64,000 nucleotides of DNA from Harriotta raleighana (Eukaryota), in NCBI GenBank assembly GCA_050575255.1, contig JBNZDD010013729.1, positions 4,172,518 to 4,236,517 of the forward strand. The letters run 5' to 3'. The notes under the pieces are model-generated. The model made no database searches, was not told where the DNA came from, and saw only the letters and a program-made list of their open reading frames with translations. Each line of letters starts with the position of its first letter. Position 1 is the first letter of the stretch. Made by a program: the position numbers and the translations under genes. Positions 12,052 to 15,000 of the stretch are shown here, one piece after another.

Positions 12052-15000
12052 ATGGCCCAAGTCGGGAAGTCCATGGCACCAACTGTACAGGAGGAGCCCC
12101 CCAATGCTGAAAATCTCCAGGCAATAAAATTCCTCATGTCTGCGCTGGAGTCGATGGTAAGTGATTGGATTTACCAAATATCAATTAAAAAAATTTCAAA
12201 GTACAAAGTTATTGTGGACTTCACACTTATCTTAAATCTGACAAATGTGTTGTGAAGGCCCATTAAAGACAGTAGATATGCTTCCTTGATTCTCTTGACT
12301 TGCCTGATCTGTATTCGTAATTGTGAAACTTATTAATAGCAGTTTCTTTTATGCTTAGGAATAGATAAGTAACATACCCAAAAGAATTTATGTAGTAAAA
12401 ATTTTTTTTTAAAGTTCGGAAATTGTTGAACTGCATCTGTGCATATGTGAATGGATATCTAGAGCAGTTTGCTACAACCCAAATTAACTACCAGAAAGTC
12501 CTCGACGCAAACTTGTTTTTGCTGCGACCAAAATTAGCCTTCAAACGGTCCTCCCACCACTAGGGGGTGATATTGTGACTGAAGCGTTAAAAAAGCATTT
12601 TGAACATTAAAAAAAGGAGAAAACAAAATTCTGATTACCCTTGGTAAATCCAATCACTTACCATCGACTTTGTAACCCTACCGAAGACCCCCGCGACCCT
12701 GATTTGGGTCAGGACCCGAGGTTGGGAACCACTGATCTAGAGTATTGTATAACTTCTCATGTTGGAATTCTGTCTGTGCTTTGTATCTATCTTTCTACCC
12801 TCCTAAAAATGCCAAATGCTAAATAAATGTATGAAGTATATTAAGGGGCATATAAAGTTTTTCCGATGGCCTATAAATTCATCATTAATTTGTGCTTTTT
12901 AGTGTCAGGAAATTGCCAAGTCAAAAGCTGAAGTGGCTTGTATCGCTGTGTATGAAAAAGACGCATTTGTAGTTGGGACTGAGCGAGGAAGATCCTTCAT
13001 TGGAAATCGAAAAGATTTTCAGAGAGACTTTATAAAATACTGTAAGTTACTTACAAATAGATAATAATAATAATAATCCTTGCGTTTAATATAGCCCTTA
13101 TTGCATCTTCTAGGCATCTCAAAGCATTTCACAGAATATTCTGTAAAGTAAAATGAAATTGTATTTTGTGGGGGAAACGCAGTAGCTATTGCACGCTCAA
13201 TTGAAGACTGTCCCACAAACAGCCGTAGAACCAGTGACCAAATTAATAATTTGGAAGAGATTATTTCCCCCAGAAATAGATCTGCCAATCGACTAATAGC
13301 CAAGGTTTCATATTAACCAGAGTGTGGACGTTTACTTAAACCATCTCCACTCCCGATGTGAAAGGTGCTATACAAATGTAATTTTGTTATTGTATCTGAT
13401 TAAAGACAATTTATTAAAACTGTAATGTAATCACATCTGTTTGCAATGTATTTGTATATACTGTGTCCTAACTACTGATGATTACATTTTAGGTTTGGCT
13501 CGAAAAGCAGCAGGAAAGCGGATAGTAAAAAATACAGTTGTCTCTCGCCGAACGCGGTGGTTATGTTCCTGGAGAACAGCGCACTTGGCAAAATTGCGTT
13601 CGGTAAGCTTAATAAGTAATGGGGAACAAATGGTTAGGGGAATCCATCCACAGGCTATCCAACCTGAAGCCTCCAGGCACATCCACACCCGAGCAACGCA
13701 ATCAATCAATCAAAATTACATTTATATAGCGCCTTTCATGTCGGGAGGACGAACGTAATGGTACGTACTGAGGCAGGCTACAGCCAGCTGGCCCACTCTC
13801 GTCGCTCTCCCCGCTCTCACTGACTCACTGGAGACAATAAAACAGCACCTTACACTACTACAGCTTGACTAAATTATTTTACCTTTGGTCCTGGAAGTGC
13901 TGGGCTATATGAATACAGTAAATATGAACGAAACAACCTTGATTGTACTTTACCATACAATGCCATCAGGTTGCTCTAAGGCCGAAGAATCATCAGACTT
14001 AGGTGGAGCCCAAGTACTCATGCGCGCGGGGCCGGCGTCCTCCTAAGTGCGCATGTTCCCTGGCAGGGCCAGCCAGCGCATTTAGTCAAATTTTACTCGC
14101 ATTCCGCAAAAAAGTGCCGCATTTATTTCTTCGCGTATAGGCGAATTCGCACTCGAGAAAGTTGCGTTCGGCAAGGGTTGACTGTATTCCTTATGTGGCA
14201 CTGACTCCTGTGGATAAAGTTGCTGACATCGAAACACTCAGAAAATCAGTTGAAGATGTATTCTGTTTGTTGTACGGTATGGTAACATTTCAGTTTTTAA
14301 TTTATTTTTTAAAAAACTGTCTTACATTCTTAAAACCGTCACCTGGAAGCATTATTGTTTTATTGGTAATGTCTTCAGATTTTCTCTATGCTTTGTTTGG
14401 AATCTGTGGGGCAACTTGTTTGTCTTAATTGCAGGTAAAGCTCATGGCAAATGCGCTCCTATTCCTGTGCCTTATGAAAAGATATTGAAGGATCCCGAAG
14501 CGGTAGCAATCCAAGGAATGCCTGATGGTGTAAGCTTTAAACAACCTGCACATTATGACATTGTAACTTTAGAAAAAGTTTTGGAGCGAAAGGCACAGCT
14601 AGCATTTGTGATAAAGAGGTAAATTCTCTCCTGAAGATTAATCTTAATTCCAATGCACATAAAAAGGTAATACAAATTTCACATATGCTTGCTACACTAC
14701 TGAAAGTTTCGATGTAAGAATATTGCAACATTTCACATGTTTCTGGTATTGAAGTTGAGTAATCAAGTTTTTTTTTACTTTAGGCCATTTCTGGATAGCA
14801 TACAACATGGTAAATTGATCTCATTATTGGATTAAGATTTATTACACTAGTTTATTTTAAAAAAAGTCTAGTACATAATTATAATGTAGAACAAGCTTGT
14901 CTAGATATATTTGGATCGCAGACTATTAGCTTCAAATTAAAAAAGAACCAATGGATTTTTCAAAATTCTGCAGACTATTATAATTCCTTGCATTTAATAT

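Follow-up and report, generated by a model that had tools for sequence, protein, structure and literature searches.

The stretch of DNA analysed here, referred to as the window, comprises 64,000 nucleotides from the chimaera Harriotta raleighana (GenBank assembly GCA_050575255.1, contig JBNZDD010013729.1, positions 4,172,518 to 4,236,517, forward strand). On its plus strand it carries a partial copy of GTF2I, in which the third coding exon is interrupted by a miniature inverted-repeat transposable element (MITE) and which is followed by exons of Tigger type. We present evidence that the middle of this MITE may have become a new intron. The features of the GTF2I part are:

12052..12156, plus strand: GTF2I-copy coding exon 1
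12903..13041, plus strand: GTF2I-copy coding exon 2, 96% identical to Callorhinchus milii over 45 amino acids
13533..13534, plus strand: TA target site, left copy
13535..14184, no strand assigned: MITE of 650 nt, a non-autonomous, TA-targeting DNA transposon (Tc1/mariner, with Tigger/pogo-like ends) bounded by terminal inverted repeats (TIRs), recognized by TIRs, TA and related copies
13700..13755, no strand assigned: short repeat nested in the MITE, with 14 other matches in the window and no counterpart at that place in the related copy near position 4650
14185..14186, plus strand: TA target site duplication, right copy
14435..14618, plus strand: GTF2I-copy exon 4, Pfam PF02946 positions 15-74 of 75
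14784..20418, plus strand: GTF2I-copy exons 5-10 (14784-14809, 15365-15416, 16520-16569, 17038-17115, 19220-19282 and 20311-20418), all with GT/AG and in frame, the last ending in phase 1

Both exon 2 and the searched half of the interrupted exon have C. milii GTF2I as their best match. The copy spans C. milii residues 1-341 only, with one I-repeat, and residues 342-1035 match nothing in the window except the exon of that I-repeat. The canonical plan has six I-repeats, all of which are present in C. milii, and the window encodes one of them. The gene had been named GTF2I in a preliminary description of the sequence; it is indeed derived from GTF2I, but as a 5' partial copy with a single I-repeat that runs on into Tigger exons, and a canonical GTF2I can be ruled out. 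We infer that it is a duplicate of a full parental gene located elsewhere. A C. milii segment of about 22 residues (approximately residues 263-284) has left no trace in window positions 17116-19219, and was either lost in the copy or belongs to an alternative exon.

The interrupted exon

The host exon (13493-14276) is bounded by an AG and a GT of its own, and contains the TA-flanked, TIR-bounded element of 650 nt at 13535-14184. When the element is taken out together with one of the two flanking TA copies, an exon of 132 nt remains that reads as GTF2I. The TIR arms match at 16 of 22 positions. The element is short and without a transposase frame (no open reading frame of at least 120 residues), and its Tigger label is presumptive, based on features of the TIRs and the TA. 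The nested repeat, which we take to be like the tail of a short or long interspersed element (SINE/LINE), departs at 3 of 40 positions from the majority sequence of the 14 other matches. Two diverged relatives of the MITE are found in the window, at 4651-5490 (the 4650 copy) and 22327-22560. In an RNA fold of the MITE the TIRs pair (z = -0.57), and no special RNA structure is claimed; an Rfam scan of window positions 1-34000 gave no matches.

Retention of the MITE results in an exon of 784 nt in which the frame shifts and a stop is met at 13756-58. Skipping of the entire exon (13041>14435) keeps the frame, and either half-exon alone shifts it. The preliminary description had given the same coordinates for the MITE and the same 132-nt exon, and had pointed to the in-frame stop and to the in-frame skip with loss of the start of I-repeat 1; all of this was confirmed, and the skip would take away the first helix of the repeat.

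Splice sites of the predicted intron

A splice from 13602 to 14141 connects a donor and an acceptor that are both in phase 0, removes 538 nt and restores a frame free of stops, in agreement with the earlier proposal of a frame-restoring intron that adds 38 residues. The spliced exon pair measures 246 nt, including 114 additional nt (38 codons) composed of 68 nt of the left end of the MITE, 44 nt of its right end and the 2 nt of the duplicated TA. The predicted features are:

13493..13602, plus strand: predicted new exon 3a, 110 nt, with 42 host nt and 68 nt of MITE left end
13603..14140, plus strand: predicted new intron, 538 nt, GT..AG, phase 0, entirely transposon-derived, containing the stop at 13756-58
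14141..14276, plus strand: predicted new exon 3b, 136 nt, with 44 nt of MITE right end, TA and 90 host nt including the first helix of I-repeat 1
13633..13761, plus strand: competing donors, one at 13633 (in frame, adding 48 codons) and one at 13761 (beyond the stop, out of frame)
14160..14161, plus strand: weak second in-frame AG, common to all three family copies (adding 31 codons)

Splice sites were scored with a weight matrix trained on the genes of the window itself, i.e. 24 donors and 22 acceptors, of which HPS3 supplied 14 of its 16 donors and 13 of its 16 acceptors (two donors and three acceptors at doubtful junctions were left out) and the GTF2I copy supplied 10 donors and 9 acceptors. 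The acceptor at 14140/14141 outscores 19 of the 22 real acceptors, and AGs of this strength occur only three times in 10,702 intronic nt; its score is 9.6, compared to 5.1 for the best rival AG in the MITE. The donor at 13602/13603 had previously been called strong. The GT site is there, but its strength is moderate, above that of 6 of the 24 real donors and equalled by 13 decoys.

An equally strong, in-frame and stop-free pair was encountered in 1 of 2000 dinucleotide shuffles and in none of 150 other 650-nt pieces of the window, the cut-off in this strictest version of the test being taken from the observed pair itself. With cut-offs at the 25th percentile of real sites these numbers rise to 29 of 2000 shuffles and 3 of 150 pieces, and at the 10th percentile to 195 and 11, respectively. 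Judged by its sequence, the splice pair goes beyond chance and the middle of the MITE is probably spliced out as a new intron.

The 38 extra residues are missing from the C. milii protein and from 10 elasmobranch proteins, all of which align across the site in a comparison of protein sequences, and the TA duplication shows that the MITE came in by insertion. A protein search with the 3' half-exon (15 transposon-derived and 30 host residues) yielded one match among six candidates, the C. milii GTF2I, which lacks the insert. Against 50% representatives the same half-exon gave a single match, to an unrelated repeat protein of 5230 residues. As annotated proteins of the same species did not come up, these searches carry little weight. 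The two transposon-derived peptides had no match among the fetched proteins.

Age of the insertion and integrity of the gene

Under the splice model the GTF2I part consists of 350 codons in 11 exons without a stop, all its introns have GT/AG ends, and all insertions and deletions relative to C. milii are in frame. The two proteins differ at 33 of 290 aligned residues, nine of these changes being at the 163 columns that are invariant in 11 cartilaginous fishes. In the 3' half-exon 3 of 30 residues differ from C. milii, two of them as in most sharks, while about 5-6 changes would be expected at a divergence (d) of 0.08-0.10.

The MITE is old, to judge from the differences at 6 of 22 TIR positions and from the nested repeat. 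The TIR arms give a per-arm distance of 0.17 (95% range 0.06-0.42, if the arms began identical). Neutral decay of the host sequence was simulated with a transition bias of 2.2 and 0.07 indels per substitution, values taken roughly from comparisons of Tigger units and duplications in the window. The probability that both host halves are as intact as observed was 0.09, 0.012 and 0.003 at d = 0.05, 0.08 and 0.10, respectively, and the whole host frame stayed intact with a probability of 0.00075 at d = 0.05 and in 0 of 4000 runs at d of at least 0.08. Provided that its ends give a true picture of its age, the insertion therefore did not kill the gene, and exon 3 stayed in use. The statement in the preliminary description that the gene is alive thus finds indirect support in the intact 350-codon frame, in both exon halves being kept despite an old MITE, and in purifying selection on the exons further downstream (see below).

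Proposed intron gain and alternative explanations

We propose as the probable explanation, based on the genomic sequence, that a transposon has imprecisely given rise to an intron at this locus, within a fusion gene of GTF2I and Tigger sequences that is still alive in the chimaera. The MITE inserted at a TA in coding exon 3 of the GTF2I copy. It has a GT donor 68 nt from its left end and a pyrimidine tract and AG 44 nt from its right end, placed such that the 114 nt to be retained are a multiple of three in any phase and open in two of the three phases. Splicing at these sites would turn one exon into two and keep helix 1 of the single I-repeat. Fixation of the insertion could have been permitted by the duplicate status of the gene and by the escape that in-frame skipping provides, and selection may subsequently have kept both exon halves, since either half alone shifts the frame. 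The transcript would run on into the tandem Tigger exons, and the predicted product is a GTF2I N-terminus with one I-repeat fused to transposase DNA-binding domains (825 residues with Tigger units 2 and 3).

The 38 added residues would fall in a linker that is predicted to be disordered. In the AlphaFold model of C. milii GTF2I, the insertion site (residues 97/98) is located in a coil (residues 93-111) with a pLDDT (predicted local distance difference test) below 50; the predicted template modelling score (pTM) of the whole model is only 0.25, the repeats being its confident parts.

Several observations weigh against this interpretation. The linker has 31-33 residues in all 115 fetched proteins that match its pattern, compared to 69 in the spliced form. 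The donors at 13633 and 13761 score above that at 13603 in the small matrix, which was built from only 24 and 22 sites, and use of the donor at 13761 leads to a stop. The 5' half-exon has lost two codons and has three substitutions relative to C. milii, and at 242 sites lineage-specific changes are more numerous in the GTF2I copy (12) than in C. milii (5), with p 0.14, which would fit a constraint that is relaxed but real. The exonised left end of the MITE is not better conserved relative to the 4650 copy than the intronic part (24 of 68 versus 21 of 91 positions different, p 0.11). At d = 0.02 the simulated neutral probabilities are 0.49 for the halves and 0.075 for the whole frame, so that the argument from intactness hangs on a loosely bounded age. 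Finally, Tigger unit 1 contains a stop and has lost its donor.

The alternative that survives best, which we consider unlikely, is that the gene is alive and the interrupted exon is wholly skipped (13041>14435), the MITE being an ordinary intronic element with an incidental or minor GT/AG pair. Skipping preserves the frame, and the nearly fixed linker length of the relatives and the moderate donor at 13603 agree with it; moreover, I-repeats 2-6 and the segment of about 22 residues are already lost, and more loss may perhaps be tolerated. However, skipping would remove C. milii residues 83-127, and with them most of helix 112-130 and Pfam positions 1-14, from a repeat of which the rest stays conserved. 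Exon 4 encodes only positions 15-74 of the 75 of PF02946, and the part of C. milii GTF2I covered by the solved human repeat (2D9B) begins at residue 106. The 3' half-exon has also changed less than expected at d = 0.08-0.10 (3 of 30 residues against about 5-6), and its strong AG would define an out-of-frame exon of 136 nt.

Untidy splicing of transposon insertions is known from maize Ds and nematode Tc1. It is somewhat less likely than skipping that here, too, the donors 13602, 13632 and 13760 compete with each other and with exon skipping, leaving the frame-restoring intron as a minority among products bound for nonsense-mediated decay. The three donors have similar matches to U1 (7, 5 and 7 of 11 positions, respectively), there is a second, weak AG, and 4 of the 12 donor-acceptor combinations in the MITE are open. 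Nevertheless, the acceptor scores far above any rival AG in the MITE, and the long persistence of both exon halves suggests a substantial functional isoform.

Least probable is a pseudogene, in which the MITE would have hit a dead or dying partial duplicate and produced an in-frame splice pair by chance: this would suit a truncated copy at a non-native place beside HPS3, the broken 3' end of Tigger unit 1, a protein that has changed somewhat faster than in C. milii and the 7-10% of random inserts that yield some in-frame pair at lax cut-offs, but it is contradicted by 350 codons without stop or frameshift and with all splice sites intact, by neutral probabilities of at most 0.00075 (whole frame) for d of at least 0.05 and by purifying selection on the downstream Tigger exons, and a recent death (d about 0.02) would not undo an earlier intron gain.

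Other copies of the element and origin of the splice sites

Within the window, one of the three family copies is exonic and has the acceptor. The AG is missing at the acceptor position in both other copies, and in the 4650 copy TGT is followed by GTAAGC, as noted in the preliminary description. The donor motif GTAAG is common to the exonic copy and the 4650 copy; it is subterminal and recurs at the right end of the MITE. The geometry of 68 + 44 + 2 = 114 nt is free of gaps relative to the right ends of the other copies, with two of three phases open. A gain of the donor in the exonic copy is therefore rejected, as is tuning of the frame after insertion.

The difference between the exonic copy and either comparator amounts to 26-28%, compared to 14% between the two comparators, and both TIRs of the exonic copy carry diagnostic bases that are absent from the other copies. 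The AG-less copies therefore appear to belong to another subfamily, and for this reason they are silent on the ancestral state of the AG. The earlier view that the exonic copy gained its splice sites, or had them favoured by selection, is not upheld: the donor and the frame geometry are family features, and the copies without AG are apparently of another subfamily. Chances are about even that the AG was brought by the subfamily of the element or arose later. Either origin fits intron gain, as the element may have been splice-ready on arrival, or a leaky or skipped insertion may have been mended by a new AG.

Two further explanations of the acceptor were rejected. Three adjacent changes at the acceptor could be seen as a sign of selection, but by our own arithmetic a stretch of 100 nt with 27% difference should contain about two such triples. 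The palindrome that follows the AG might have allowed a template switch, which could account for two of the three changed bases, but not for the G that makes the AG. A degenerate pattern derived from the three right ends had no matches in metagenome_contigs.

A more far-reaching idea, which we regard as speculative and rather improbable, is that the master copy of the subfamily already combined both splice sites with the frame-neutral 114-nt geometry, i.e. that it was a vertebrate Introner-like MITE that seeded introns in other coding exons of chimaeras. The present copy would then reside in a GTF2IRD2-like transcription factor of independent origin, with three Tigger DNA-binding exons that recognize the many ends of Tigger MITEs in the genome.

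Predicted fusion to Tigger-type exons

The exons downstream of the GTF2I part belong to three tandem Tigger-type units, each of which carries the domains CENP-B_N and HTH_Tnp_Tc5:

23895..24469, plus strand: Tigger unit 1, with phase-1 acceptor, CENP-B_N and HTH_Tnp_Tc5, stop after 190 residues, downstream donor lost
25594..26250, plus strand: Tigger unit 2, an open 657-nt phase 1-1 exon with acceptor and donor
26608..27377, plus strand: Tigger unit 3, a terminal exon that has both DNA-binding domains and little of the catalytic part, with a stop at 27377

The phase-1 donor at 20418 is in frame with the phase-1 acceptors at 23895, 25594 and 26608, and 825 residues are open with units 2 and 3. 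The region 12052-27377 (plus strand) can be regarded as a candidate host-transposase fusion gene that would be convergent in plan with GTF2IRD2; it is arguably as interesting as the intron itself. A decayed Tigger-like transposase with stops is found at 20930-22200 (plus strand), in the intron that separates unit 1 from the GTF2I part, and falls outside the open model.

The ratios of non-synonymous to synonymous rates (dN/dS) between the Tigger units are 0.36, 0.40 and 0.36 (Fisher p 0.014, 0.007 and 0.002, respectively). Coding sequences of the duplication units have diverged by 4.6-7.0%, compared to 16.6-17.5% for non-coding sequences, also when CpG sites are left out. By these comparisons the Tigger exons are under purifying selection, with gene conversion as an alternative source of their low divergence.

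The fusion acceptor coincides with the start codon of the transposase, as ATG is found in all three free copies (7318, and 10528 and 15894 on the minus strand) and AG in all three gene copies (23885, 25584 and 26598). A single change seems to have removed the transposase start and created a splice site. The phase-1 donor ending each Tigger unit (23513, 24555 and 26250) is supplied by the tandem-duplication junction, apparently through a short word shared at the breakpoint; it is intact in unit 2, and its GT is lost in unit 1.

A Tc5/CENP-B domain is present in the gene models of 13 of the 120 listed relatives. The Tigger units share 28-46% identity with the transposase parts found in the models of sharks, rays, a snake and mammals, which argues against a shared origin with the GTF2I-transposase models of sharks and rays and points to a Tigger capture here that was separate from that in other GTF2I models. 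The GTF2I gene models of rays, a sawshark, a snake, bats, a mole-rat and an elephant contain different Tigger or hAT transposase parts in different places, which suggests that GTF2I may capture transposase exons repeatedly.

Relation to known introns and fusion genes

Transposon insertion is among the listed routes of intron gain, including elements with splice sites near their ends, and most gained introns are without a traceable origin (PMC3443670). Intron turnover between cartilaginous fishes and tetrapods is reported to be low (PMC12357937), and a survey of human intron gain left transposon origins untested (PMC12124190). Transposon-made coding introns are already known, in notothenioid slc26a2 and as Introners; that of the chimaera would take an imprecise route with 38 added codons.

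A vertebrate coding case is that of notothenioid slc26a2, in which introns 3 and 5 are transposon-derived (PMC12357937). As in the chimaera, an element that has inverted repeats and a duplicated target split a coding exon, and the new intron later received a nested insertion (PMC12357937). In slc26a2 the gt-ag are located in direct and inverted repeats, giving near-exact excision with a 4-nt duplication (PMC12357937), whereas the predicted chimaera intron has internal sites, would add 38 codons and has a TA duplication. Moreover, slc26a2 is a single-copy teleost orthologue that was compared across species (PMC12357937), whereas the chimaera gene is a partial duplicate in a cartilaginous fish, read from one genome.

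Introners can supply both splice sites, those of the Aureococcus type adding 12 bp (PMC9860276, PMC12130899), and have been found in only two animal groups (PMC9860276). The chimaera element is similar in being MITE-like with TIRs and a target site duplication, in having both splice sites internal and in that it would lengthen the protein (PMC9860276, PMC12130899). Introner families, however, made many introns with few added codons each, whereas here there is one copy that would add 114 bp, and the two other copies in the window are without the acceptor.

Intronization of Alu elements has been described for four cases in human last exons, all in the 3' untranslated region and alternatively retained (PMC2394776). 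There, too, an exonic insertion provides both donor and acceptor and splits the exon (PMC2394776). The Alu cases concern a retrotransposon in a 3' untranslated region (PMC2394776), in contrast to a DNA transposon in coding sequence in the chimaera, where retention leads to a stop.

Fusion of host and transposase exons by splicing is well established, with GTF2IRD2 as one of the examples (bioRxiv 2020.05.07.082677, PMC10641963), and a Tigger7-derived N-terminal (first) exon of human GTF2IRD2 and GTF2I has been reported to be under purifying selection (PMC6169893). The chimaera gene resembles GTF2IRD2 in that a GTF2I-type N-terminus with an I-repeat would be spliced to an acceptor just before a transposase frame. 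Mammalian GTF2IRD2 has a 3' part from hAT Charlie8, whereas the chimaera gene has Tigger exons with CENP-B_N and HTH_Tnp_Tc5, three in tandem, 3' of a single I-repeat. By its domain content the fusion resembles GTF2IRD2 in plan and is not a member of that family. In the literature searched, neither this locus nor any intron made by a transposon in a cartilaginous fish is described; its coverage did not extend to most subscription papers or to supplements, among them the tables of fusion genes that accompany the bioRxiv paper.

Both splice sites, the TIRs and the TA duplication can still be read, as can the exon in its form before insertion, and in this slow-evolving vertebrate lineage the locus therefore allows a test of whether a transposon can create an intron in a coding exon. 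If the proposed intron gain is correct, it would illustrate an imprecise route in which a single insertion supplied both an intron and 38 new residues, the gene concerned being a duplicate with relaxed constraint. The gene would also constitute a separate GTF2I-transposase fusion, adding to the signs of repeated transposase-domain capture by GTF2I.

Surroundings of the gene

The GTF2I copy is located upstream of HPS3 and of exons that we take to be ceruloplasmin-like from their motifs, between two copies of the HPS3 upstream region. One HPS3 exon in the window is 90% identical to C. milii and 53-66% identical to sharks and rays, which points to a holocephalan distinct from C. milii. A second copy of the HPS3 upstream region, in which the GC-rich proximal part is also present, is found beyond the GTF2I copy (822-3497 versus 29841-32337), with an uneven divergence of 16%, 6.7% and 4.5% that perhaps reflects conserved regulatory sequence or conversion. 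Just after this duplicate there is a candidate promoter, proposed from motifs in its sequence:

3664..3900, plus strand: candidate promoter, with motifs that we take to be ZNF143-like and NRF1-like

Single-N joins with duplicated flanks, at 35637-35760 (N at 35755, in the region of an HPS3 exon) and at 5130, are scaffold artefacts; none is found inside 5131-33115, and the exon finding is unaffected. Finally, an HPS3 intron contains a perfect inverted repeat of 90 nt with 284 nt between its arms (42539-43002), which is probably a very young MITE.

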